Source of the DNA: Escherichia coli
GTDB lineage: Bacteria; Pseudomonadota; Gammaproteobacteria; Enterobacterales; Enterobacteriaceae
Length of the DNA: 64,000 bases
Assembly (NCBI RefSeq): GCF_048403405.1
Contig: NZ_CP183129.1
Reading direction: 5' to 3' (one strand)
Shown here: piece by piece, positions 3,659 through 55,254 of the stretch
Layout of the letters: every line of letters starts with the position of its first letter
Numbering within the stretch: position 1 is the first letter of the stretch
Made by a program: the position numbers and the translations under genes
The notes under the pieces: generated by a model
Database searches by the model: none
What the model was told of the DNA's origin: nothing
What the model saw: the letters and a program-made list of their open reading frames with translations, nothing else

Positions 3659-4156
3659 ATGGATTTGTCACAGCTAACACCACGTCGTCCCTATCTGCTG
3701 CGTGCATTCTATGAGTGGTTGCTGGATAACCAGCTCACGCCGCACCTGGTGGTGGATGTGACGCTCCCTGGCGTGCAGGTTCCTATGGAATATGCGCGTG
3801 ACGGGCAAATCGTACTCAACATTGCTCCGCGAGCTGTCGGCAATCTGGAACTGGCGAATGATGAGGTGCGCTTTAACGCGCGCTTTGGTGGCATTCCGCG
3901 TCAGGTTTCTGTGCCGCTGGCTGCCGTGCTGGCTATCTACGCCCGTGAAAATGGCGCAGGCACGATGTTTGAACCTGAAGCTGCCTACGATGAAGATGCC
4001 AGCATCATGAATGATGAAGAGGCATCGGCAGACAACGAAACCGTTATGTCGGTTATTGATGGCGACAAGCCAGATCACGATGATGACACTCATCCTGACG
4101 ATGAACCACCGCAGCCACCACGTGGTGGTCGACCAGCATTACGCGTTGTGAAGTAA
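3659..4156 (+). CDS. sspB: ClpXP specificity-enhancing adaptor SspB
   Basis: 165-aa ORF with acidic C-terminal tail ending GGRPALRVVK; 5 bp downstream of sspA. Confidence 0.95.
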   Translation: MDLSQLTPRRPYLLRAFYEWLLDNQLTPHLVVDVTLPGVQVPMEYARDGQIVLNIAPRAVGNLELANDEVRFNARFGGIPRQVSVPLAAVLAIYARENGAGTMFEPEAAYDEDASIMNDEEASADNETVMSVIDGDKPDHDDDTHPDDEPPQPPRGGRPALRVVK

Positions 4157-4160
4157 TACT

Positions 4161-4193
4161 AAAACAGGCCCTGGCGGCCTGTTTTGTCTTTTT
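4161..4193. terminator. Bidirectional terminator hairpin between convergent sspB and dcuD
   Basis: aaaacaggccctggcggcctgttttgtcttttt: GC stem flanked by A-run and T-run. Confidence 0.75.
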
Positions 4194-4199
4194 AATGAC

Positions 4200-5567
4200 T
4201 TAATAAAATAGCGTGATTGTGGCAATCATATTCACCACGAAACCGACTGCCATGGGGATCGCTGTCCGCTTCACTACCGCAAAAGGCGAAACGCCTGCAA
4301 TTCCTGACGTAACGACCACCACCGCAGTAATCGGCGAAACAGCGCGCGCTAGCGTCGTGGCAAAATGCATCGGCATAATCATTACAACCGCTGGCACATG
4401 TAGTCCGGCTGCGATATTCGGAATAAGACTGGCAAATGACATAAACGGCGCATTGCCTGAGCCCATCACAATGGCACAAATGGCAATGACCAGCGCCATA
4501 ATAATCATCACGCCAATACCGCCCAGACCAGAATGCTCCGCACCCCTGATAACCGCATCGACAGTGCCAATCGTCGTTAAGCCTTTCGCAAATATTTCAC
4601 CCGCGACCACCAGCGTTACCACGTTGGCAAACTGCGTACCCATGCCGTCAAAAAACGCCTGCACATCATCCATTGTTTCACGCAAGTTATGCTTGCGGAA
4701 GAACTCAACAAACATCGTCACCGTCAAACTCAGTAACATCACCACCACCAGATGCAGTTCTGACTGCATCAGCCCGACGTGGGCAAGGAACAGCGAGCCG
4801 AGCATCAGGATTAACGGCATCACCGGTAAAATGGCGTAATAGAGCGGTGGGACATTATCGAGAGCTTTTTGCTCTGCCTGTTCGTGATTGATATTTTTAT
4901 CTTTTTTGTCGAAAGCGCGTTGCACGAAAAAGTGGGAGATCGCCACCGAGATAATGACGCAAGAGGCGACCGGAAGCTGGTAGTGGAAGAAGTAAGTGGC
5001 AATTTTCATTCCTGCGACCTGGGCAGCAAAAATGGAGTTCGTTTCCAGAATCCCCCACTCAATGGACATCGTGGTTGCGATAACCGCCACCGCAGAGAGG
5101 CGACTTACTCCCAGACTCACCAGCGTCGGAAATAAGGTGACCATCAGCAACATACCCAGACCGGAGGCGCTGGTAATAAACTGCGCCATGATTTGGCCGA
5201 TGACGTAAGTTGCCGACAGAATAATATACGGCGAGCGAATGAGTTTTAACGGGCGGCTTAACAAGCTCACCATCGCGCGACTTGCCCCTATGCGCTCCAT
5301 ATAGCGGGCATAACCGCCCACTGCCATAATCGACAGCCCCAATCCGGCAATGCGGTTGGACAGCATGCGCAGGATTTCATTATAAATATCGACGATCAAG
5401 TAGCCGCTGCTTTTGGCGGGATCGAGCACACCACCGAACCCTAACCAGACACCGCACATCATCAGGAAGATACCTGCGACAGCCAGCACCACCTGAGGTT
5501 TGTAGTTTTTCAGGATCAAATAGCCCATCGTAATTAATACGATGACAGATATAATTATGCCGAACAT
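4200..5567 (-). CDS. dcuD: Putative anaerobic C4-dicarboxylate transporter DcuD (DcuC family)
   Basis: Multi-pass membrane protein; internal ATG at 5567 gives 455 aa starting [25 protein letters not shown]; ORF track start at 5585 is 6 codons longer. Confidence 0.9.
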
Positions 5568-5946
5568 TGTTGAACTCCGTGTCAAAAGAAAACGGTCAAT
5601 CCCATAAACGGCAGATTGAAAACAATGATGTTATATTTTTTGCAAGGCTATTTATGGTGCGGATGTCGTGTTTTTAATTGTAGGTGAGGTGATTTTTCAT
5701 TAAAAAATATGCGCTTATGATTATTTTGTAAGAACACATTCATAATATTCATAATGCTCGTGAATAGTCTTATAAATAATTCAATCGGGATGTTTTTATC
5801 TGCGTTACATTAATTTTTCACAATAGTTAATTATTCCGTTAATTATGGTAATGATGAGGCACAAAGAGAAAACCCTGCCATTTTCCCCTACTTTCAATCC
5901 TGTGATAGGATGTCACTGATGATGTTAATCACACTGACCTTACAGA

Positions 5947-6738
5947 ATGGGCCTTATGAACGCATTTGATTCGCAAACCGAAGATTCTTCACCTGCAATT
6001 GGTCGCAACTTGCGTAGCCGCCCGCTGGCGCGTAAAAAACTCTCCGAAATGGTGGAAGAAGAGCTGGAACAGATGATCCGCCGTCGTGAATTTGGCGAAG
6101 GTGAACAATTACCGTCTGAACGCGAACTGATGGCGTTCTTTAACGTCGGGCGTCCTTCGGTGCGTGAAGCGCTGGCAGCGTTAAAACGCAAAGGTCTGGT
6201 GCAAATAAACAACGGCGAACGCGCTCGCGTCTCACGTCCTTCTGCGGACACCATCATCGGCGAGCTTTCCGGCATGGCGAAAGATTTCCTTTCTCATCCT
6301 GGCGGGATTGCCCATTTCGAACAATTACGTCTGTTCTTTGAATCCAGCCTGGTGCGCTATGCGGCTGAACACGCCACCGATGAACAAATCGATTTGCTGG
6401 CAAAAGCACTGGAAATCAACAGTCAGTCGCTGGATAACAACGCGGCATTCATTCGCTCAGACGTTGATTTCCACCGCGTTCTGGCGGAGATCCCCGGTAA
6501 CCCAATCTTCATGGCGATCCACGTTGCCCTGCTCGACTGGCTGATCGCCGCACGTCCAACCGTGGCTGATCAGGCTCTGCACGAGCATAACAACGTTAGC
6601 TATCAACAGCATATTGCGATCGTTGACGCGATCCGCCGCCACGATCCCGATGAAGCCGATCGCGCGTTGCAATCGCATCTCAACAGCGTCTCTGCTACCT
6701 GGCACGCCTTCGGTCAGACCACCAACAAAAAGAAATAA
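5947..6738 (+). CDS. nanR: GntR/FadR-family repressor of sialic acid catabolism NanR
   Basis: 263-aa ORF with N-terminal winged HTH (GntR type) and FCD-like C-terminal domain; directly upstream of nanA. Confidence 0.93.
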
Positions 6739-45598: not shown

Positions 45599-46228
45599 AT
45601 GACAGGTAAGAAGCGTTCTGCCAGCTCCAGCCGCTGGCTTCAGGAACACTTTAGCGATAAATATGTTCAACAGGCACAGAAAAAGGGGTTACGTTCCCGT
45701 GCCTGGTTTAAACTTGATGAAATACAGCAAAGTGACAAACTCTTTAAACCGGGAATGACGGTTGTCGACCTTGGTGCTGCGCCGGGTGGTTGGTCACAAT
45801 ATGTGGTCACCCAAATTGGCGGCAAAGGCCGTATCATCGCTTGCGATCTTTTACCTATGGATCCTATCGTTGGTGTGGACTTTCTTCAGGGCGATTTTCG
45901 TGATGAACTGGTGATGAAAGCACTGCTGGAGCGCGTTGGCGACAGCAAAGTCCAGGTTGTCATGTCCGATATGGCACCAAACATGAGCGGAACACCGGCG
46001 GTGGATATCCCCCGTGCCATGTATCTGGTGGAACTGGCGCTAGAAATGTGTCGTGATGTATTAGCGCCAGGTGGCAGTTTTGTAGTGAAGGTGTTCCAGG
46101 GCGAAGGTTTCGATGAGTATCTAAGGGAAATTCGCTCCCTGTTTACGAAGGTCAAAGTTCGTAAGCCGGACTCTTCTCGCGCACGTTCGCGGGAAGTGTA
46201 TATTGTAGCGACCGGGCGTAAACCCTAA
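45599..46228 (+). CDS. rlmE: 23S rRNA 2'-O-ribose U2552 methyltransferase
   Basis: 209-aa ORF with SAM-binding motif [14 protein letters not shown]; divergent from yhbY and upstream of ftsH. Confidence 0.96.
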
Positions 46229-46327
46229 CCGGGAGATTTCAGACGAAAGTTTGAAAGATGCTGGATATAGAGTATCCTGACGCTGTTTTTAACACAGTTG
46301 TAATAAGAGGTTAATCCCTTGAGTGAC

Positions 46328-48262
46328 ATGGCGAAAAACCTAATACTCTGGCTGGTCATTGCCGTTGTGCTGATGTCAGTATTCCAGAGCTTTGGGCCCA
46401 GCGAGTCTAATGGCCGTAAGGTGGATTACTCTACCTTCCTACAAGAGGTCAATAACGACCAGGTTCGTGAAGCGCGTATCAACGGACGTGAAATCAACGT
46501 TACCAAGAAAGATAGTAACCGTTATACCACTTACATTCCGGTTCAGGATCCGAAATTACTGGATAACCTGTTGACCAAGAACGTCAAGGTTGTCGGTGAA
46601 CCGCCTGAAGAACCAAGCCTGCTGGCTTCTATCTTCATCTCCTGGTTCCCGATGCTGTTGCTGATTGGTGTCTGGATCTTCTTCATGCGTCAAATGCAGG
46701 GCGGCGGTGGCAAAGGTGCCATGTCGTTTGGTAAGAGCAAAGCGCGCATGCTGACGGAAGATCAGATCAAAACGACCTTTGCTGACGTTGCGGGCTGCGA
46801 CGAAGCAAAAGAAGAAGTTGCTGAACTGGTTGAGTATCTGCGCGAGCCGAGCCGCTTCCAGAAACTCGGCGGTAAGATCCCGAAAGGCGTCCTGATGGTC
46901 GGTCCTCCGGGTACCGGTAAAACGCTGCTGGCGAAAGCGATTGCAGGCGAAGCGAAAGTTCCGTTCTTTACTATCTCCGGTTCTGACTTCGTCGAAATGT
47001 TCGTCGGTGTGGGTGCATCCCGTGTTCGTGACATGTTCGAACAGGCGAAGAAAGCGGCACCGTGTATCATCTTTATCGATGAAATCGACGCCGTAGGCCG
47101 CCAGCGTGGCGCAGGCCTGGGCGGTGGTCACGATGAACGTGAACAGACTCTGAACCAGATGCTGGTTGAGATGGATGGCTTCGAAGGTAACGAAGGTATC
47201 ATCGTTATCGCCGCGACTAACCGTCCGGACGTTCTTGACCCGGCGCTGCTGCGTCCTGGCCGTTTCGACCGTCAGGTTGTGGTTGGCTTGCCAGATGTTC
47301 GCGGTCGTGAGCAGATCCTGAAAGTTCACATGCGTCGCGTACCATTGGCACCCGATATCGACGCGGCAATCATTGCCCGTGGTACTCCTGGTTTCTCCGG
47401 TGCTGACCTGGCGAACCTGGTGAACGAAGCGGCACTGTTCGCTGCTCGTGGCAACAAACGCGTTGTGTCGATGGTTGAGTTCGAGAAAGCGAAAGACAAA
47501 ATCATGATGGGTGCGGAACGTCGCTCCATGGTGATGACGGAAGCGCAGAAAGAATCGACGGCTTACCACGAAGCGGGTCACGCGATTATCGGTCGCCTGG
47601 TGCCGGAACACGATCCGGTGCACAAAGTGACGATTATCCCACGCGGTCGTGCGCTGGGTGTAACTTTCTTCTTGCCTGAGGGCGACGCAATCAGCGCCAG
47701 CCGTCAGAAACTGGAAAGCCAGATTTCTACGCTGTACGGTGGTCGTCTGGCAGAAGAGATCATCTACGGGCCGGAACATGTTTCTACCGGTGCGTCCAAC
47801 GATATTAAAGTTGCGACCAACCTGGCACGTAACATGGTGACTCAGTGGGGCTTCTCTGAGAAATTGGGGCCACTGCTGTACGCGGAAGAAGAAGGTGAAG
47901 TGTTCCTCGGCCGTAGCGTAGCGAAAGCGAAACATATGTCTGATGAAACTGCACGTATCATCGACCAGGAAGTGAAAGCACTGATTGAGCGTAACTATAA
48001 TCGTGCGCGTCAGCTTCTGACCGACAATATGGATATTCTGCATGCGATGAAAGATGCTCTCATGAAATATGAGACTATCGACGCACCGCAGATTGATGAC
48101 CTGATGGCACGTCGCGATGTACGTCCGCCAGCGGGCTGGGAAGAACCAGGCGCTTCTAACAATTCTGGCGACAATGGTAGTCCAAAGGCTCCTCGTCCGG
48201 TTGATGAACCGCGTACGCCGAACCCGGGTAACACCATGTCAGAGCAGTTAGGCGACAAATAA
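46328..48262 (+). CDS. ftsH: ATP-dependent zinc metalloprotease FtsH
   Basis: ATG at 46328 gives 644 aa [20 protein letters not shown]...; AAA Walker A GPPGTGKT and zinc motif HEAGH. Confidence 0.97.
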
Positions 48263-48293
48263 GTTCCCGCATCAGATGACTGTATTTGTACCG

Positions 48294-48326
48294 AAAACCC
48301 CGGGGCGTGCTCCGGGGTTTTTTCTT
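48294..48326 (+). terminator. Rho-independent terminator after ftsH (likely partial, folP follows)
   Basis: aaaaccccggggcgtgctccggggttttttctt: GC stem plus T-run. Confidence 0.75.
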
Positions 48327-48351
48327 ATCAATTCATACCAGGGATAACACC

Positions 48352-49200
48352 ATGAAACTCTTTGCCCAGGGCACTTCACTGGACCTTAGCCATCCTCACG
48401 TAATGGGGATCCTCAACGTCACGCCTGATTCCTTTTCGGATGGCGGCACGCATAACTCGCTGATAGATGCGGTGAAACATGCGAATCTGATGATCAACGC
48501 TGGCGCGACGATCATTGACGTTGGTGGCGAGTCCACACGCCCGGGGGCGGCGGAAGTTAGCGTTGAAGAAGAGTTGCAACGTGTTATTCCTGTGGTTGAG
48601 GCAATTGCTCAACGCTTCGAAGTCTGGATCTCGGTCGATACATCCAAACCAGAAGTCATCCGTGAGTCAGCGAAAGTTGGCGCTCACATTATTAACGATA
48701 TTCGCTCCCTTTCCGAACCAGGCGCTCTGGAGGCTGCTGCAGAAACCGGTTTGCCGGTTTGCCTGATGCATATGCAGGGAAATCCAAAGACCATGCAGGA
48801 AGCCCCGAAGTATGACGATGTCTTTGCGGAAGTGAATCGCTATTTTATTGAGCAAATAGCACGTTGCGAGCAGGCGGGTATCGCAAAAGAGAAATTGTTG
48901 CTCGACCCCGGATTCGGTTTCGGTAAAAATCTCTCCCATAACTATTCATTACTGGCGCGCCTGGCTGAATTTCACCATTTCAACCTGCCGCTGTTGGTGG
49001 GTATGTCACGAAAATCGATGATTGGGCAGCTGCTGAACGTGGGGCCGTCCGAGCGTCTGAGCGGTAGTCTGGCTTGTGCGGTCATTGCCGCTATGCAAGG
49101 CGCGCATATCATTCGTGTTCATGACGTCAAAGAAACCGTAGAAGCGATGCGGGTGGTGGAAGCCACTCTGTCTGCAAAGGAAAACAAACGCTATGAGTAA
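48352..49200 (+). CDS. folP: Dihydropteroate synthase
   Basis: ATG at 48352 gives 282 aa [32 protein letters not shown]...; ORF track start 48286 is an upstream extension. Confidence 0.95.
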
Positions 49201-50530
49201 TCGTAAATATTTCGGTACCGATGGGATTCGTGGTCGTGTAGGGGATGCGCCGATCACCCCTGATTTTGTGCTTAAGCTGGGTTGGGCCGCGGGTAAAGTG
49301 CTGGCGCGCCACGGCTCCCGTAAGATCATTATTGGTAAAGACACACGTATTTCTGGCTATATGCTGGAGTCAGCACTGGAAGCGGGTCTGGCGGCTGCCG
49401 GTCTTTCCGCGCTCTTCACTGGCCCGATGCCAACACCGGCCGTGGCTTATCTGACGCGGACTTTCCGCGCAGAGGCTGGGATTGTGATATCTGCATCGCA
49501 TAACCCGTTCTACGATAATGGCATTAAATTTTTCTCTATCGACGGCACCAAACTACCGGATGCAGTAGAAGAGGCCATCGAAGCGGAAATGGAAAAAGAG
49601 ATCAGCTGTGTTGATTCGGCAGAACTGGGTAAAGCCAGCCGTATCGTTGATGCTGCGGGTCGCTATATCGAGTTTTGCAAAGCCACGTTCCCAAACGAAC
49701 TTAGCCTCAGTGAACTGAAGATTGTGGTGGATTGTGCAAACGGTGCGACTTATCACATCGCGCCGAACGTGCTGCGTGAACTGGGAGCGAACGTTATCGC
49801 TATCGGTTGTGAGCCGAACGGTGTAAACATCAATGCCGAAGTGGGGGCTACCGACGTTCGCGCGCTCCAGGCCCGTGTGCTGGCTGAAAAAGCGGATCTC
49901 GGTATTGCCTTTGACGGCGACGGCGATCGCGTGATTATGGTTGACCATGAAGGCAATAAAGTCGATGGCGATCAGATCATGTATATCATCGCGCGTGAAG
50001 GTCTTCGTCAGGGCCAGCTGCGTGGTGGCGCTGTGGGTACATTGATGAGCAACATGGGGCTTGAACTGGCGCTGAAACAGTTAGGTATTCCATTTGCGCG
50101 CGCGAAAGTGGGTGACCGCTACGTACTGGAAAAAATGCAGGAGAAAGGCTGGCGTATCGGTGCAGAGAACTCCGGTCATGTGATCCTGCTGGATAAAACC
50201 ACTACCGGTGACGGTATCGTTGCTGGCTTGCAGGTGTTGGCGGCGATGGCGCGTAACCATATGAGCCTGCACGACCTTTGCAGCGGCATGAAAATGTTCC
50301 CGCAGATTCTGGTTAACGTGCGTTACACCGCAGGTAGCGGCGATCCGCTGGAGCATGAATCAGTCAAAGCTGTGACCGCAGAAGTTGAAGCGGCGCTGGG
50401 TAGCCGTGGACGTGTGCTGTTGCGTAAATCCGGCACCGAACCGTTAATTCGCGTGATGGTGGAAGGCGAAGACGAAGCGCAGGTGACTGAATTTGCACAC
50501 CGCATCGCCGATGCAGTAAAAGCCGTTTAA
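49193..50530 (+). CDS. glmM: Phosphoglucosamine mutase
   Basis: 445-aa [20 protein letters not shown]... with active-site serine motif SASHNP; overlaps folP stop. Confidence 0.97.
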
Positions 50531-50548
50531 AGCGTTAGATAACTGGCT

Positions 50549-50576
50549 AAAAAGGCGGCGATTGTCGCCTTTTTTC
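50549..50576 (+). terminator. Rho-independent terminator after glmM
   Basis: aaaaaggcggcgattgtcgcctttttt. Confidence 0.8.
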
Positions 50577-50757
50577 TCGGCGAACACATCGGTTTTGCTG
50601 TTTTTTTCCGCAGTTGATACAATGCGATAAAATTGCCCTTGCGAAGGTCATTCGCTTTGGTTAGTATTCACACCCGCTTCAGTGGGAAAGATTAAAAACT
50701 CCCGCTTTATTGGTTGAAGCATTGGTACGCGGCAACTCCGCAAGGAACAGGTTGATT

Positions 50758-51090
50758 ATGTACGAAGCTCTTTTGGTAGTTTTCCTTATTGTGGCAATTG
50801 GCCTTGTTGGTCTGATCATGCTGCAGCAAGGTAAAGGCGCTGATATGGGAGCCTCCTTCGGAGCAGGCGCTTCCGCTACGCTGTTTGGTTCAAGTGGTTC
50901 TGGTAACTTCATGACCCGCATGACGGCGCTGCTGGCAACGTTATTCTTCATCATCAGTCTGGTACTGGGTAACATCAATAGCAACAAAACCAATAAAGGT
51001 AGCGAATGGGAAAACCTGAGTGCGCCGGCCAAAACCGAACAAACTCAGCCAGCTGCTCCGGCTAAGCCGACCAGCGATATCCCGAACTAA
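50758..51090 (+). CDS. secG: Protein-export membrane protein SecG
   Basis: ATG at 50758 gives 110 aa MYEALLVVFLIVAIGLVGLIMLQQGKGADMGASFG...; the ORF track start 50710 is an upstream extension. Confidence 0.95.
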   Translation: MYEALLVVFLIVAIGLVGLIMLQQGKGADMGASFGAGASATLFGSSGSGNFMTRMTALLATLFFIISLVLGNINSNKTNKGSEWENLSAPAKTEQTQPAAPAKPTSDIPN

Positions 51091-51104
51091 AAAGTAGTAT
51101 CCGT

Positions 51105-51191
51105 GCCGAGGTGGTGGAATTGGTAGACACGCTACCTTGAGGTGGTAGTGCCCAATAGGGCTTACGGGTTCAAGTCCCGTCCTCGGTACCA
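51105..51191 (+). tRNA. leuU: tRNA-Leu (anticodon GAG)
   Basis: 87-nt sequence GCCGAGGTGGTGGAATTGGTAGACACGCTACCTTGAGGTGGTAGTGCCCAATAGGGCTTACGGGTTCAAGTCCCGTCCTCGGTACCA with long variable arm and CCA end; 15 bp after secG. Confidence 0.95.
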
Positions 51192-51199
51192 AATTCCAG

Positions 51200-51234
51200 A
51201 AAAGAGACGCTGAAAAGCGTCTTTTTTCGTTTTG
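51200..51234 (+). terminator. Rho-independent terminator after secG-leuU
   Basis: aaaagagacgctgaaaagcgtcttttttcgtttt. Confidence 0.85.
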
Positions 51235-51647
51235 GTCCTGATCTGAGGAATGGTTGTCAGGTATCTGTATCTCGTCCAGTTGCTTTACTCGTAGCTGGTA
51301 CTTTGAAACGATGGTGCCGGTACGCCTTAGTTATAAACTTTTCCCTTCTGCTGACATAATTGGCACTTTATTGTGTCAACTCCAGTTCCGGTACGAATAC
51401 GGATATGTTTACTTCTCGATAAACCATCCTGCTCCTGTCAGTATAACTACTGATGGCTACGTTCTGCGTAATGTTTAGAGACGCATTGATAATGTTATTT
51501 AATTACTGAGAACAATGGCCGCATCATTTAAAAAGAAAAAACTAACAGTGTTTCGGTCTGATATGGATCAGAGTTGAAAAACATGTCTGATATAAAATTG
51601 AACATTGTTGATAATTGTTTATATTGGTTGTGAACTTGGATTTCTGG

Positions 51648-53273
51648 ATGACAGTATTCAACAAATTTGTTAGAAGTTTTAAATCTCATTGGTTGTTGTA
51701 TCTTTGTGTTATTGTTTTTGGTATTACGAACTTAGTCGCCTCTTCCGGAGCGCATATGGTTCAGCGATTGCTGTTCTTCGTTCTGACCATCCTGGTTGTT
51801 AAACGTATATCATCCCTTCCGCTTCGCCTGCTTGTTGCCGCACCATTTGTGTTACTGACAGCGGCAGACATGAGTATTAGCCTCTATTCATGGTGTACCT
51901 TTGGTACAACTTTCAATGATGGATTTGCGATTAGCGTGCTGCAGAGTGATCCGGATGAAGTTGTCAAAATGCTGGGGATGTATATCCCTTATCTATGTGC
52001 TTTTGCCTTTTTATCCCTTCTTTTTTTGGCAGTAATAATAAAATATGATGTTTCCTTGCCGACGAAAAAAGTGACAGGAATATTATTGCTGATTGTCATT
52101 TCGGGCAGTTTATTTTCCGCTTGTCAATTTGCTTATAAAGATGCAAAAAATAAAAAAGCGTTCAGTCCATATATACTAGCGTCGCGATTTGCTACCTATA
52201 CGCCGTTTTTCAATCTCAATTATTTTGCTTTAGCAGCGAAAGAGCATCAAAGATTACTCTCAATTGCAAACACGGTGCCATATTTTCAATTATCAGTCAG
52301 GGATACAGGTATTGATACCTACGTGTTGATTGTGGGGGAGTCTGTACGTGTCGACAATATGTCTTTGTATGGATACACACGCTCTACGACACCGCAAGTC
52401 GAAGCACAAAGAAAACAGATCAAACTGTTTAATCAAGCAATAAGCGGTGCACCTTACACTGCGCTGTCGGTTCCCCTTTCTTTAACTGCTGATTCTGTTT
52501 TGAGTCATGACATTCATAATTACCCGGACAACATTATTAATATGGCTAATCAAGCAGGATTTCAGACTTTCTGGCTAAGCTCGCAATCCGCTTTTCGGCA
52601 GAATGGTACAGCAGTTACCAGTATCGCCATGCGCGCCATGGAAACAGTCTATGTCAGAGGATTTGATGAATTGTTGTTGCCGCATTTATCGCAAGCGTTA
52701 CAGCAAAAGACGCAGCAAAAGAAACTGATTGTTCTTCATTTAAATGGAAGCCATGAACCGGCTTGTAGCGCCTATCCGCAATCCAGCGCCGTGTTTCAAC
52801 CGCAGGACGATCAGGATGCCTGCTATGACAACTCCATTCATTACACAGATAGTTTGCTAGGTCAGATTTTTGAATTATTAAAAGATCGCCGCGCCTCGGT
52901 CATGTATTTTGCCGACCACGGCCTGGAACGCGACCCTACGAAGAAGAACGTCTATTTTCATGGAGGCAGGGAGGCCAGCCAGCAGGCATATCATGTCCCG
53001 ATGTTTATCTGGTATAGCCCCGTTCTTGGGGATGGCGTTGATCGTACAACGGAAAACGATATCTTTTCCACTGCGTACAATAATTACCTTATTAATGCGT
53101 GGATGGGGGTAACAAAGCCGGAACAGCCGAAAACGCTGGAGGAAGTGATTGCACACTATAAAGGAGACTCACGGGTTGTGGATGCAAACCATGATGTTTT
53201 CGATTATGTGATGCTCAGAAAGGAGTTTACAGAGGATAAGCAAGGTAACCCCACCCCTGAAGGGCAGGGTTGA
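51648..53273 (+). CDS. yhbX: Putative phosphoethanolamine transferase / sulfatase-family inner membrane protein YhbX
   Basis: ATG at 51648 gives 541 aa MTVFNKFVRSFKSHWLLYL...; N-terminal TM helices plus C-terminal sulfatase-like domain; strongly AT-rich relative to flanks. Confidence 0.85.
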   Translation: MTVFNKFVRSFKSHWLLYLCVIVFGITNLVASSGAHMVQRLLFFVLTILVVKRISSLPLRLLVAAPFVLLTAADMSISLYSWCTFGTTFNDGFAISVLQSDPDEVVKMLGMYIPYLCAFAFLSLLFLAVIIKYDVSLPTKKVTGILLLIVISGSLFSACQFAYKDAKNKKAFSPYILASRFATYTPFFNLNYFALAAKEHQRLLSIANTVPYFQLSVRDTGIDTYVLIVGESVRVDNMSLYGYTRSTTPQVEAQRKQIKLFNQAISGAPYTALSVPLSLTADSVLSHDIHNYPDNIINMANQAGFQTFWLSSQSAFRQNGTAVTSIAMRAMETVYVRGFDELLLPHLSQALQQKTQQKKLIVLHLNGSHEPACSAYPQSSAVFQPQDDQDACYDNSIHYTDSLLGQIFELLKDRRASVMYFADHGLERDPTKKNVYFHGGREASQQAYHVPMFIWYSPVLGDGVDRTTENDIFSTAYNNYLINAWMGVTKPEQPKTLEEVIAHYKGDSRVVDANHDVFDYVMLRKEFTEDKQGNPTPEGQG

Positions 53274-53280
53274 TGTCGAA

Positions 53281-54639
<1,359 letters not shown>

Positions 54640-54674
54640 TTAATTAACTGATGATGAGCCTGGATTTCCGCTCT

Positions 54675-54710
54675 CACTGAATTTTTATGCAAAATAAATG
54701 AGTTTTCATT
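54675..54710 (-). promoter_or_regulatory. Putative tandem ARG boxes (ArgR operator) upstream of argG
   Basis: On the argG strand: AATGAAAACTCATTTATT and TTGCATAAAAATTCAGTG, two adjacent 18-bp ARG-box-like palindromes (TGAAT...ATTCA type) 50-85 bp upstream of the ATG. Confidence 0.45.
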
Positions 54711-54971
54711 TAATCATCTTTTATCGGAGACAGGAAGAGTTTAGTGTGTTTTTTGTAAAATAATGCGCTTAAGGGAGAGCAGGAGAAGGCAAAAGTATTC
54801 AACAAATGAAAGTGAACCGGATATTCATTCACGTGATTAGCAATAAACGTTGACAAAATGTGGCATGGATCACTATAATGCCTGCAGATTTTACGTCCCG
54901 TCTCGGTACACCAAATCCCAGCAGTATTTGCATTTTTTACCCAAAACGAGTAGAATTTGCCACGTTTCAGG

Positions 54972-55048
<77 letters not shown>

Positions 55049-55170
55049 CTTTCCCTTAGAGTCCTTTTTCAAATATACTGTGAAGACTTCGGCCTTCGTA
55101 GTGGGATTTGAAAAAATCCTTCTGGAAAGTGCTCCAGACCGCAGTTGCGGTTATAGGGTTCAGTTATATA

Positions 55171-55196
55171 AAGCCCCGATTTATCGGGGTTTTTTG
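55171..55196 (+). terminator. Hairpin plus U-run in metY-rimP leader (partial terminator/attenuator)
   Basis: aagccccgatttatcggggttttttg. Confidence 0.65.
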
Positions 55197-55254
55197 TTAT
55201 CTGACTACAGAATAACTGGGCTTTAGGCCCTTTTTTTATGTCTTGGGGGTGGGC

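Follow-up and report, generated by a model that had tools for sequence, protein, structure and literature searches.

The DNA analysed here is a 64,000-nucleotide (64-kb) stretch from Escherichia coli, hereafter the window, annotated through a 100%-identical E. coli genome (strain TUM14771). Within it, the gene yhbX lies between the tRNA gene leuU and the core gene argG. The features that define the locus are as follows:

50758-51090, + strand: secG, a conserved core gene of the left flank, annotated in the identical genome, with synteny kept across Enterobacteriaceae
51105-51191, + strand: leuU, tRNA-Leu(GAG), detected by ARAGORN and Rfam (tRNA, 52.8 bits)
51199-51228, + strand: intrinsic terminator of secG-leuU, from a terminator scan (13-pair stem and T-run)
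51234-51235, no strand: left islet breakpoint, where homology stops right after ...GCGTCTTTTTTCGTTTT
51235-51647, + strand: upstream region of yhbX peculiar to the type-1 allele, unalignable to the type-2 and type-3 upstream regions
51648-53273, + strand: yhbX coding sequence, annotated as 541 aa from ATG
51684-52136, + strand: N-terminal membrane domain of YhbX (residues 13-163), about five TM helices according to hydropathy and the AF2 helices
52317-53045, + strand: periplasmic sulfatase-fold catalytic domain of YhbX (residues 224-466, Pfam PF00884)
53244-53280, no strand: right junction between yhbX and argG, defined by comparison with E. fergusonii, the HTH allele and outgroups
53281-54624, - strand: argG, core gene of the right flank

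The borders of the variable DNA are sharp. The leuU terminator, whose hairpin can be read on either strand, closes the conserved DNA on the left and is present in all alleles and in the outgroups. Right behind this terminator, homology among the type-1 yhbX, type-2 yhbX, HTH and remnant alleles (see below) breaks off: the alignment to E. fergusonii stops at window position 51233, and three other locus sequences diverge at the same point. The leuU-yhbX spacer (51192-51647) is 456 bp long and includes weak sigma-70-like matches at 51587-51625, found in a promoter scan upstream of yhbX. Its 74-aa ORF (51254-51478) has no Pfam match, and no structured RNA was detected in the spacer, as Rfam at E ≤ 1 reported only two tRNAs and the rimP leader. 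An alternative TTG start at 51615 would extend YhbX to 552 aa; the annotated N-terminus is alignable to the E. fergusonii-type protein from residue 1. On the right, a C-terminal extension of 9-10 codons reads through a degenerate hairpin, and 7 bp separate its end from the argG stop; residues 535-541 have AF2 pLDDT below 50. The ancestral argG terminator is absent from this junction, and comparison across alleles and genera revealed that the last two argG codons (53284-53289) here encode ...GQ before the stop, as opposed to the ancestral ...[A/V/G]K.

Composition sets this DNA apart from its surroundings. With a GC content of 0.421, the interval 51192-53273 is the lowest of any 2082-bp stretch in the window, where the lowest non-overlapping stretch has 0.473 and the mean is 0.520 (sd 0.022). 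Likewise, none of the other 46 annotated genes has a GC as low as that of yhbX itself (0.432, z = -3.66; gene mean 0.518, sd 0.023). Both GC3 (0.430 vs the gene mean of 0.550, and equal to that of rpmA) and GC1 are low, with z about -2.5, whereas GC2 is ordinary (0.373 vs 0.392). The gene also has a low local codon-adaptation index (0.565; gene mean 0.701; z = -2.0), with comparable values in three other genes of the window, sfsB, yrbG and yhbE. GC climbs along yhbX: the membrane part has 0.37-0.41, the C-terminal third 0.47-0.49. The preliminary description had called both the gene and its upstream DNA much more AT-rich than their neighbours and had proposed windowed GC and codon usage as a check. 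The check bore this out for the gene and for the interval as a whole, but not for the spacer: its GC of 0.382 falls inside the range of the other intergenic regions in the window (0.375-0.53), so that the gene, rather than the spacer, is the real outlier. These values show the yhbX islet to be compositionally foreign. The high-affinity H-NS motif occurs in it at four sites with at most 2 mismatches, or 1.9 per kb compared to 1.2 per kb in the window.

The view of YhbX as a membrane protein with a sulfatase fold, of the phosphoethanolamine-transferase type, was confirmed. Residues 224-466 match PF00884 (Sulfatase) with E = 4e-56; this was the sole Pfam report at E ≤ 0.01, the N-terminal domain of EptA and EptB (PF08019) being undetected. 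Nevertheless, the fold of the YhbX membrane domain superposes on those of EptA and MCR-1 in a Foldseek comparison of the AF2 model. That model has a pLDDT of 92.4 and yields full-length matches to 5FGN and 9NWW (TM-score about 0.63), and also to 6A82. Residues E231, T271, H369, D423, H424 and H438 align with the catalytic residues of both EptA and EptC, T271 (codon 52458-52460) taking the position of the nucleophile, and all six are invariant or at least 90% conserved among 40 diverged relatives. YhbX therefore displays both the TM plus sulfatase-fold architecture and the threonine nucleophile and zinc ligands of the family.

Its relationship to characterized members is distant. EptC (CptA, YijP), which transfers phosphoethanolamine to heptose I of the LPS core, likewise has five TM helices, a periplasmic sulfatase-fold domain, a threonine nucleophile and the metal ligands. 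Among solved structures it is the closest to YhbX in sequence (5ZZU, E = 5e-24), and it is also a top structural match (6A82). However, the two are only about 22-25% identical, and eptC, a core gene, lies at a different chromosomal location. The lipid A enzymes EptA/PmrC and MCR-1 match the full-length YhbX fold (NmEptA 5FGN, MCR-1 9NWW), and YhbX keeps equivalents of NmEptA E240, T280, H383, D452, H453 and H465, but identity drops to 18-20%. Genes for mcr and YhbX-type genes are both found on mobile elements. By pairwise similarity, YhbX falls into the same branch as OpgE (YbiP), whose target is not lipid A but a periplasmic glycan, the osmoregulated periplasmic glucans, with about 29% identity over the catalytic domain; this kinship is also seen in PMC4013655. 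Curated NCBIfam models give a consistent picture. YhbX scores 155.6 bits with the generic phosphoethanolamine-transferase domain model (cut-off 500), 142.4 with CptA (404), 122.8 with EptA (561), 103.1 with EptB (493) and 125 with a second CptA model (900); the EptA models together span 94-123 bits against cut-offs of 561-660, and the MCR models 30-71 against 1075-1250. Since YhbX scores far below the cut-off in every case, including every EptA, EptB and CptA model, we assign it to a separate subfamily. Its acceptor, anticipated not to be obvious, indeed does not appear to be deducible from sequence.

What occupies the leuU-argG site varies within the species. Among 5426 complete E. coli genomes, 5178 (95.4%) carry type-1 yhbX, the allele of the window, 237 (4.4%) an XRE-HTH gene, 9 (0.2%) the E. 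fergusonii-type (type-2) yhbX and 1 a decayed remnant. These four mutually exclusive states cover 5425 of the 5426 genomes. At least 80% of the yhbX interval is matched in one place in 5166 genomes, while type-1 yhbX with its upstream region is unmatched in 248 (4.6%). Several further candidates were discarded. The cargo in LR883965 (a hypothetical protein, IS1 and a truncated XRE gene) is not a third kind: here IS1 interrupts the HTH gene. What seemed to be a YhbX fragment with 74% identity at this site turned out to be an artefact of a bisulfite-converted E. coli assembly rather than a diverged orthologue (C-to-T changes make up 471 of the 485 mismatches, and just 2 gaps occur in the alignment). 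The cluster list included further fragments with 68-95% identity; those with a name are truncated E. coli products, and the remainder are short and unnamed.

Beyond E. coli, the site is kept but its content is not. An outgroup scan with ArgG listed loci from genera other than Escherichia, Salmonella and Klebsiella; the contexts in Salmonella, C. koseri and E. fergusonii came from exact-protein look-ups. Neither set includes E. albertii, E. marmotae or any of the cryptic clades. The order nusA-rimP-metY-argG-leuU-secG-glmM is preserved in at least 14 non-Escherichia Enterobacteriaceae loci. None of the 14 syntenic loci listed has a YhbX homologue between leuU and argG: the gap (117-570 bp) is empty in 10, and 4 (Kluyvera, Pluralibacter and two other taxa) harbour unrelated cargo of 1.7-3.6 kb. 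Conserved flanks, alternative cargo within the species and other cargo in related genera make leuU-argG a replacement hot spot where several alleles alternate, as opposed to a simple insertion into an empty site. The XRE-HTH gene is also found there in Salmonella and C. koseri, syntenic with the E. coli HTH allele, and this allele, like the outgroups, retains the ancestral ArgG C-terminus and terminator. Because the HTH allele combines the ancestral argG end with this wider synteny, yhbX appears to be the derived state, which arose within Escherichia. The HTH gene, whose synonymous divergence is near saturation (pS 0.70-0.77), may alternatively have invaded the site repeatedly instead of being its original occupant.

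The diverged yhbX alleles point to more than one source. Type-2 yhbX sits at the same leuU-argG site, yet types 1 and 2 differ with pS 0.746 (dN/dS 0.05), whereas ten flanking genes have pS of 0.04-0.22. Saturation between the E. coli and E. fergusonii-type alleles within near-identical flanks shows them to be separately sourced alleles drawn from one gene pool. Compared in 500-bp windows, the nine type-2 E. coli genomes are 96-100% (mostly at least 99%) identical to E. fergusonii through about 6.5 kb of either flank, and their folP-glmM allele was found in only 16 of 5425 E. coli. Type-3 YhbX, 65% identical, resides on integrase islands at pheU and pheV, adjoining a P4-type integrase and tRNA-Phe, and also on plasmid CP057032.1. 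The same gene pool is therefore also in circulation on pheU/pheV integrase islands and a plasmid. The nearest relatives outside Escherichia were recovered by a 50%-cluster search, plain protein searches being dominated by near-identical E. coli entries. They are 42-48% identical (Buttiauxella, Pectobacterium, Mixta and Microvirgula, one of them a betaproteobacterium), and each is a lone gene in a different genomic context.

These data bear directly on whether yhbX was acquired at all. In principle, it might be an old, vertically inherited gene of Enterobacteriaceae that has mostly been lost, its AT-richness reflecting membrane-protein amino acids and weak expression. The ordinary GC2, the near-host GC of the C-terminal third, the near-fixation in E. 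coli (95%) and purifying selection are all compatible with such a history, and the syntenic HTH gene indicates that AT-rich genes can last long at this site. Yet GC3 and GC1 are both low, no homologue is present at the 14 syntenic outgroup loci listed, and the outside relatives, a betaproteobacterium included, are 42-48% identical and lie in unrelated contexts. Moreover, it is the HTH allele that comes with the ancestral site architecture, and synonymous sites are saturated between the E. coli and E. fergusonii-type genes, with flanks at 0.04-0.22. Vertical inheritance is thus already largely refuted, and we consider it extremely improbable. The preliminary description had instead taken the locus for a horizontally acquired islet and named GC and codon statistics like those of the neighbours, together with universal vertical conservation in the family, as what would speak against it. 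Composition, absence from the outgroup loci listed and the alternative alleles all favour acquisition, and yhbX is not conserved vertically at leuU-argG across the family as sampled by those loci.

In our preferred reading, which we hold to be likely, yhbX and its upstream region constitute a 2.0-kb single-gene replacement islet extending from the leuU terminator (51234) to the last argG codons (53284). A horizontally acquired yhbX would have displaced, in Escherichia, an older regulator-like gene between tRNA-Leu and argG, and alleles would come and go through recombination in the conserved flanks rather than by tRNA-directed integration. Small E. coli core-genome islets beside tRNAs similarly have fixed flanks, alternative or diverged cargo and atypical composition. 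Unlike that class, the yhbX islet has just one gene, its borders lack an integrase, att repeats and IS, and it is peculiar in that the right border cuts into the last argG codons and removes the argG terminator.

The position directly 3' of a tRNA gene had suggested a classic landing site. The adjacency itself is real: leuU ends at 51191, the islet starts at 51235, its GC is 0.42 vs 0.52 and its presence is variable. The other hallmarks of a tRNA island, att repeats and an integrase, are missing, and no original insertion signature of any kind (att repeat, IS or integrase) was found for the islet in the 64-kb window. In particular, the direct repeat of the leuU 3' end expected downstream of yhbX does not exist: the last 25 nt of leuU have no second copy in the 64 kb at up to 3 mismatches, and no repeat families touch 51150-51191. 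There is no integrase ORF or remnant either, tblastn with a P4-type integrase against 51101-53400 yielding only a chance match of 16 residues (E = 2). The islet could conceivably be the decayed remnant of an island once inserted at the leuU 3' end by a P4-type integrase, with integrase, att sites and other cargo lost later. The 456-bp distance of yhbX from the tRNA gene fits this scenario, as do the 65%-identical type 3 carried beside a P4-type integrase and tRNA-Phe at pheU and pheV, the phosphoethanolamine-transferase-type genes described at the pheU, pheV and selC insertion sites (PMC6174562), and another such pseudogene of K-12, yjgX, next to an integrase at tRNA-Leu leuX. The latter was rejected as a type-3 YhbX; at only about 30% identity, yjgX belongs to another subfamily. 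Type-3 YhbX and yjgX both exemplify family cargo beside P4-type integrases at tRNA genes, in contrast to the yhbX of the window, which has neither integrase nor att site. Apart from the unrepeated leuU end and the lack of any integrase-like coding remnant in the islet, homology between alleles breaks past the leuU terminator and not inside the tRNA, yhbX points away from the tRNA whereas the type-3 transferase converges on its integrase, and the allele import actually observed spans long homologous flanks. We therefore regard an island remnant as unlikely; the tRNA is a genuine neighbour whose causal role in the acquisition is not shown, and the landing-site part of the original idea did not hold.

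Whatever its route of arrival, yhbX shows signs of being maintained. According to substitution patterns (pN/pS 0.07 against K-12), the gene is evidently under purifying selection. YhbX is without an established function (PMC4013655), and our literature search found neither a functional study of yhbX (b3173) nor any link to polymyxin resistance. A gene without established phenotype or activity in the literature found might be a functionless relic on its way to pseudogenisation, and some genomes do have IS1 or IS3 insertions inside it (four examples), truncated products are deposited in databases (e.g. a 147-aa fragment on 88 contigs), and 248 complete genomes lack type-1 yhbX together with its upstream region. 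On the other hand, pN/pS of 0.07 within E. coli and dN/dS of 0.05 between types, catalytic residues kept across the 40 diverged relatives, an interval intact over at least 80% in 5166 of 5426 genomes and a confident structure model (pLDDT 92) are hard to reconcile with decay, making a relic very unlikely.

We favour an active enzyme. YhbX is predicted to reside in the inner membrane with its catalytic domain in the periplasm, where phosphoethanolamine would be moved from phosphatidylethanolamine onto Thr271 at a zinc site formed by E231, D423, H424, H369 and H438. The group would then be handed to an envelope acceptor other than those of EptA, EptB, EptC and OpgE, most likely a glycan or protein of the periplasm or the surface. 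In a K-12 opgE mutant, in which yhbX is present, all phosphoethanolamine on periplasmic glucans is lost (PMC3818809); hence YhbX provides no backup for OpgE under those conditions. The gene is probably poorly expressed under laboratory conditions. The argG-yhbX pair is among the convergent overlapping transcript pairs reported in PMC12288877, and it may be the loss of the argG terminator that causes the two transcripts to overlap. PADLOC defence models gave no match for YhbX and weak HTH-level matches for the alternative HTH gene.

Overall, yhbX is a known, uncharacterised E. coli gene, and its surroundings represent an ordinary small genomic islet, a tidy single-gene one at a core-genome hot spot. 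As such, it exemplifies that tRNA adjacency alone does not imply integrase-mediated insertion. A bolder and rather unlikely idea is that leuU-argG is a miniature replacement island, where frequency-dependent selection keeps 65-70%-identical, synonymously saturated YhbX alleles and the unrelated HTH gene, exchanged through the flanks. If that were true, YhbX would decorate an exposed envelope structure recognised by phages or host defences, comparable to O-antigen loci. As a further layer of this idea, convergent transcription in the absence of the argG terminator might tie yhbX expression to arginine biosynthesis in an inverse manner. The phosphoethanolamine-transferase family includes the colistin-resistance enzymes EptA and MCR, and yhbX is one of its last members in E. 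coli K-12 without a known acceptor. To this our analysis adds an Escherichia-specific derived replacement, purifying selection, alleles on islands and a plasmid, and a subfamily of its own. Taken together, these points give yhbX the look of a genuine accessory gene of the envelope, not of a relic, and reduce what an experiment must cover to find its acceptor.

The yhbX gene of this window and its own upstream DNA (51192-53273) form a replacement islet at a hot spot of the core genome. The whole window belongs to the E. coli chromosome; it matches strain TUM14771 at 100% identity and K-12 at about 98%, and its orientation is the reverse of K-12's. As the preliminary description had it, yhbX lies directly 3' of a tRNA gene, leuU ending at 51191 and the interval beginning at 51192.

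Features of the leuU-argG region (window coordinates)
51105-51191: leuU, tRNA-Leu(GAG), ending one base before the interval start
51199-51228: intrinsic terminator 3' of leuU
456 bp: leuU-yhbX spacer
51648-53273: yhbX, 541 aa, its stop codon being the interval end
53281-54624: argG, convergent with yhbX

The GC content of the interval (0.421) is the minimum among 2082-bp stretches of the 64-kb window (mean 0.520, sd 0.022); the runner-up, non-overlapping 2-kb stretch lies at about 3930-6010 (GC 0.473). The claim that yhbX is more AT-rich than its neighbours is borne out by the gene itself, which has the lowest GC among 46 annotated genes (0.432 vs a mean of 0.518 in the others, sd 0.023, z -3.66), reduced GC1 (0.494 vs 0.610, z -2.5) and GC3 (0.430 vs 0.550, z -2.5), and a GC that climbs from 0.37-0.41 where the membrane domain is encoded to 0.47-0.49 by the 3' end. 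Codon usage agrees (local index 0.565 vs 0.701 in other genes, z -2.0), a low index being common to yhbX, sfsB, yrbG and yhbE. The spacer does not share in this distinction: its GC of 0.382 is normal for intergenic DNA of this window (range 0.375-0.53). Beyond argG, Rfam places the rimP leader (RF01770, 102 bits) at 55137-55237, ahead of rimP-nusA-infB, its expected position in that operon.

Across 5426 complete E. coli genomes, mutually exclusive states of the site cover 5425, and all have the same left breakpoint, homology stopping directly after the leuU terminator.

Occupants of the leuU-argG spacer in E. coli
Type-1 yhbX (the allele of this window) with upstream region: 5178 genomes (95.4%)
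XRE-HTH gene, 317 aa, on the argG strand: 237 genomes
E. fergusonii-like allele (99.1% identity to that of E. fergusonii): 9 genomes
270-bp remnant of a diverged HTH gene: 1 genome

Type-1 yhbX diverges from that of K-12 much as neighbouring genes do (pS 0.072), and by its pN/pS of 0.07 is under purifying selection.

The nusA-rimP-metY-argG-leuU-secG-glmM order was recovered by an ArgG genome scan in at least 14 non-Escherichia Enterobacteriaceae loci. Presence and absence across the family fit an acquired gene: among the matches listed, none of 14 such syntenic loci codes for a homologue of YhbX; the gap between argG and leuU measures 117-570 bp in 10 of them, and unrelated cargo of 1.7-3.6 kb fills it in 4. 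The HTH gene has homologues in Salmonella enterica and Citrobacter koseri, 71-73% identical, in the same position and orientation and with a GC of 0.39-0.40 vs 0.53 in the flanks.

Alternative occupant (coordinates of the comparison loci)
L005, 1539-2492: E. coli 2013C-3033
L097, 5001-5960: Salmonella
L099, 5001-5960: C. koseri

This occupant encodes 317-319 aa (GC 0.37-0.40), with an N-terminal XRE-type HTH and an uncharacterised C-terminal part; homologues 52-73% identical occur in many Gamma- and Betaproteobacteria, an unusually high conservation for a protein without known function. In Citrobacter youngae and C. werkmanii (L006 and L007, 9962-13836), about 3.9 kb of extra DNA separates secG and glmM, 227 bp apart in E. 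coli; this gap is apparently a further variable spot close to the first.

The right junction bears on the order of events. In the HTH allele ArgG ends ...NKVK-stop, followed by the hairpin AAAGGCCGC-AAAT-GCGGCCTTTTTTT, and Citrobacter, Kluyvera, Superficieibacter and Salmonella have the same architecture. In Phytobacter ArgG ends ...NKAK-stop, and junction comparison found no hairpin of this type just downstream. In the type-1 allele ArgG ends ...NKGQ-stop, and the argG terminator is absent when alleles and genera are compared; in the window, at 53274-53289, 7 bp separate the yhbX and argG stops without an intervening terminator, and the final two argG codons read GQ-stop vs A/V/G then K-stop in outgroups and HTH-allele E. 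coli. On the simplest reading, the HTH gene with an intact argG terminator is the older occupant, and yhbX would then be derived, having replaced it inside Escherichia. In type 1, an additional base ahead of the former TAA may have led to a 9-10-codon read-through of the degenerate hairpin, and the inter-stop sequences of types 1 and 2 (motif GGGCAGGG, 2-5 nt, then TTGATGT) may be homologous; both points are suggestive only. Loss of the terminator implies convergent overlapping argG/yhbX transcription, and the pair is indeed among the convergent overlapping genes of an RNA-seq survey (PMC12288877).

Diverged YhbX alleles
Type 1: 541 aa; the allele of this window; between leuU and argG, 95.4% of E. 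coli
Type 2: 531 aa; 70% identical to type 1; same site; genome with the protein NCBI-named E. fergusonii
Type 3: 534-557 aa; 65% identical to type 1; beside a P4-type integrase and tRNA-Phe, at pheU and pheV

Whether types 1 and 2 differ by separate sourcing or by fast evolution has a decisive test in the flanks, which favours separate sourcing. Synonymous divergence between the two is saturated (pS 0.746, dN/dS 0.05), whereas ten genes flanking the site in the same genomes have pS of 0.04-0.22 and protein identity of 99-100%; the types therefore separated long before their host genomes did. Over about 6.5 kb per side, the nine type-2 E. coli genomes show 96-100% identity (mostly >=99%) to the locus of E. 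fergusonii in 500-bp windows, and of 5425 E. coli genomes just 16 have the E. fergusonii-type folP-glmM allele. The long high-identity flanks and this rare allele show type 2 to have been imported as a long tract, evidently by homologous recombination. Core genes adjoining the hot spot have deep allelic splits of their own within E. coli: pS among the flanking genes peaks at glmM (49193-50530), the folP-glmM segment divides the collection into groups 90-95% and 95-99% identical to the E. fergusonii-type allele, and at the argG 3' end (53281-53800) identity to the window drops to 90-95% in 929 genomes.

Of the 5426 E. coli genomes, 634 carry type-3 DNA. The gene (L093 and L094, 5668-9964) has an Ail/Lom-family outer-membrane protein gene on one side and the integrase with tRNA-Phe on the other, in islands at two chromosomal sites, on the dsbD-cutA side (pheU) and the yqgA-speC side (pheV). 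A 64%-identical copy sits on the 62-kb plasmid CP057032.1 (L086), which also conserves part of the upstream region, including a small ORF. In K-12 W3110 (L096, 3086-7457), tRNA-Leu (leuX), an integrase and IS2 accompany a frameshifted phosphoethanolamine-transferase pseudogene; it is only about 30% identical to YhbX, so a second subfamily of these enzymes is also island cargo. Beyond these types, the 50%-identity cluster of YhbX is isolated. The nearest others, at 42-48%, have members from Buttiauxella, a Pectobacterium, Mixta gaviniae and the betaproteobacterium Microvirgula, and relatives in Providencia and Proteus are about 35% identical. In all three contexts inspected, Buttiauxella, Mixta and Microvirgula, the relative is a lone gene in a differing neighbourhood, AT-rich against its own flanks in Buttiauxella. 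One apparent diverged YhbX (L090, Logan SRR3359616) was rejected as bisulfite-converted E. coli DNA: it aligns collinearly to window 45650-55001 (82.6% identity), its mismatches are almost all C to T, and its translations enter the protein collection as spurious 'diverged' proteins. The plasmid collection, for its part, includes whole chromosomes filed as plasmids, e.g. NZ_OL790696.1 (4.8 Mb).

Low GC, alternative occupants, absence of YhbX from the 14 listed syntenic outgroup loci and diverged alleles together uphold the earlier proposal of a horizontally acquired islet. The accompanying hint, that the adjacent tRNA gene served as landing site, is not supported: a search of the window found no repeat of the leuU 3' end or other flanking repeat, and a search of the islet no integrase remnant. 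An ancient origin by tRNA-directed integration is therefore unlikely.

The description of YhbX as a sulfatase-fold membrane protein of the phosphoethanolamine-transferase type is confirmed. Pfam finds a single Sulfatase domain (residues 224-466, E = 4e-56), and hydropathy predicts about five transmembrane helices in residues 13-163. NCBIfam matches are to phosphoethanolamine-transferase models only, every score being far under the curated cut-off: generic domain model, 156 bits (500); CptA, 142 (404); EptA, 123 (561); EptB, 103 (493); MCR families, 30-71 (1075-1250). When YhbX is aligned with EptC of E. coli and EptA of Neisseria, E231, T271, H369, D423, H424 and H438 fall on the metal ligands and the Thr nucleophile, and the catalytic residues are invariant or nearly so among 40 relatives with identities down to 23%. 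The AlphaFold2 model (pLDDT 92.4, pTM 0.90) best matches full-length NmEptA (5FGN), full-length MCR-1 (9NWW) and, for EcEptC, the catalytic domain (6A82); its matches to LtaS-type enzymes, to YejM/PbgA and to true sulfatases are far poorer. From residues, modelled fold and sub-cut-off scores, YhbX is equipped with all that phosphoethanolamine-transferase catalysis requires, yet stands outside every characterised orthologue group. Some NCBI entries carry conflicting names ('phosphate starvation-inducible protein PsiE', 'arylsulfatase', 'outer membrane protein') at odds with the domain evidence.

Fold, predicted membrane topology, catalytic residues, purifying selection and allele distribution are thus established for YhbX. 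By analogy with EptA, MCR-1 and EptC, phosphatidylethanolamine would be the donor, a Thr271-phosphoethanolamine intermediate would form at the periplasmic zinc site, and the phosphoethanolamine would then pass to an envelope acceptor. The lipid A, Kdo and heptose acceptor sites are assigned to EptA, EptB and EptC. Periplasmic glucan is assigned to OpgE because its phosphoethanolamine is absent in a K-12 opgE mutant despite retained yhbX (PMC3818809). YhbX is unlikely to act on any of these sites. That its substrate is not obvious from sequence still holds, and the literature found establishes no function (PMC4013655).

yhbX was a known, annotated gene before this analysis, and a feature of this type is ordinary. 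New are the apparently ancestral HTH gene at the site, the xenologous alleles sharing one position and the type-3 copies on mobile DNA, which refine the picture of yhbX as an acquired islet rather than overturn it.
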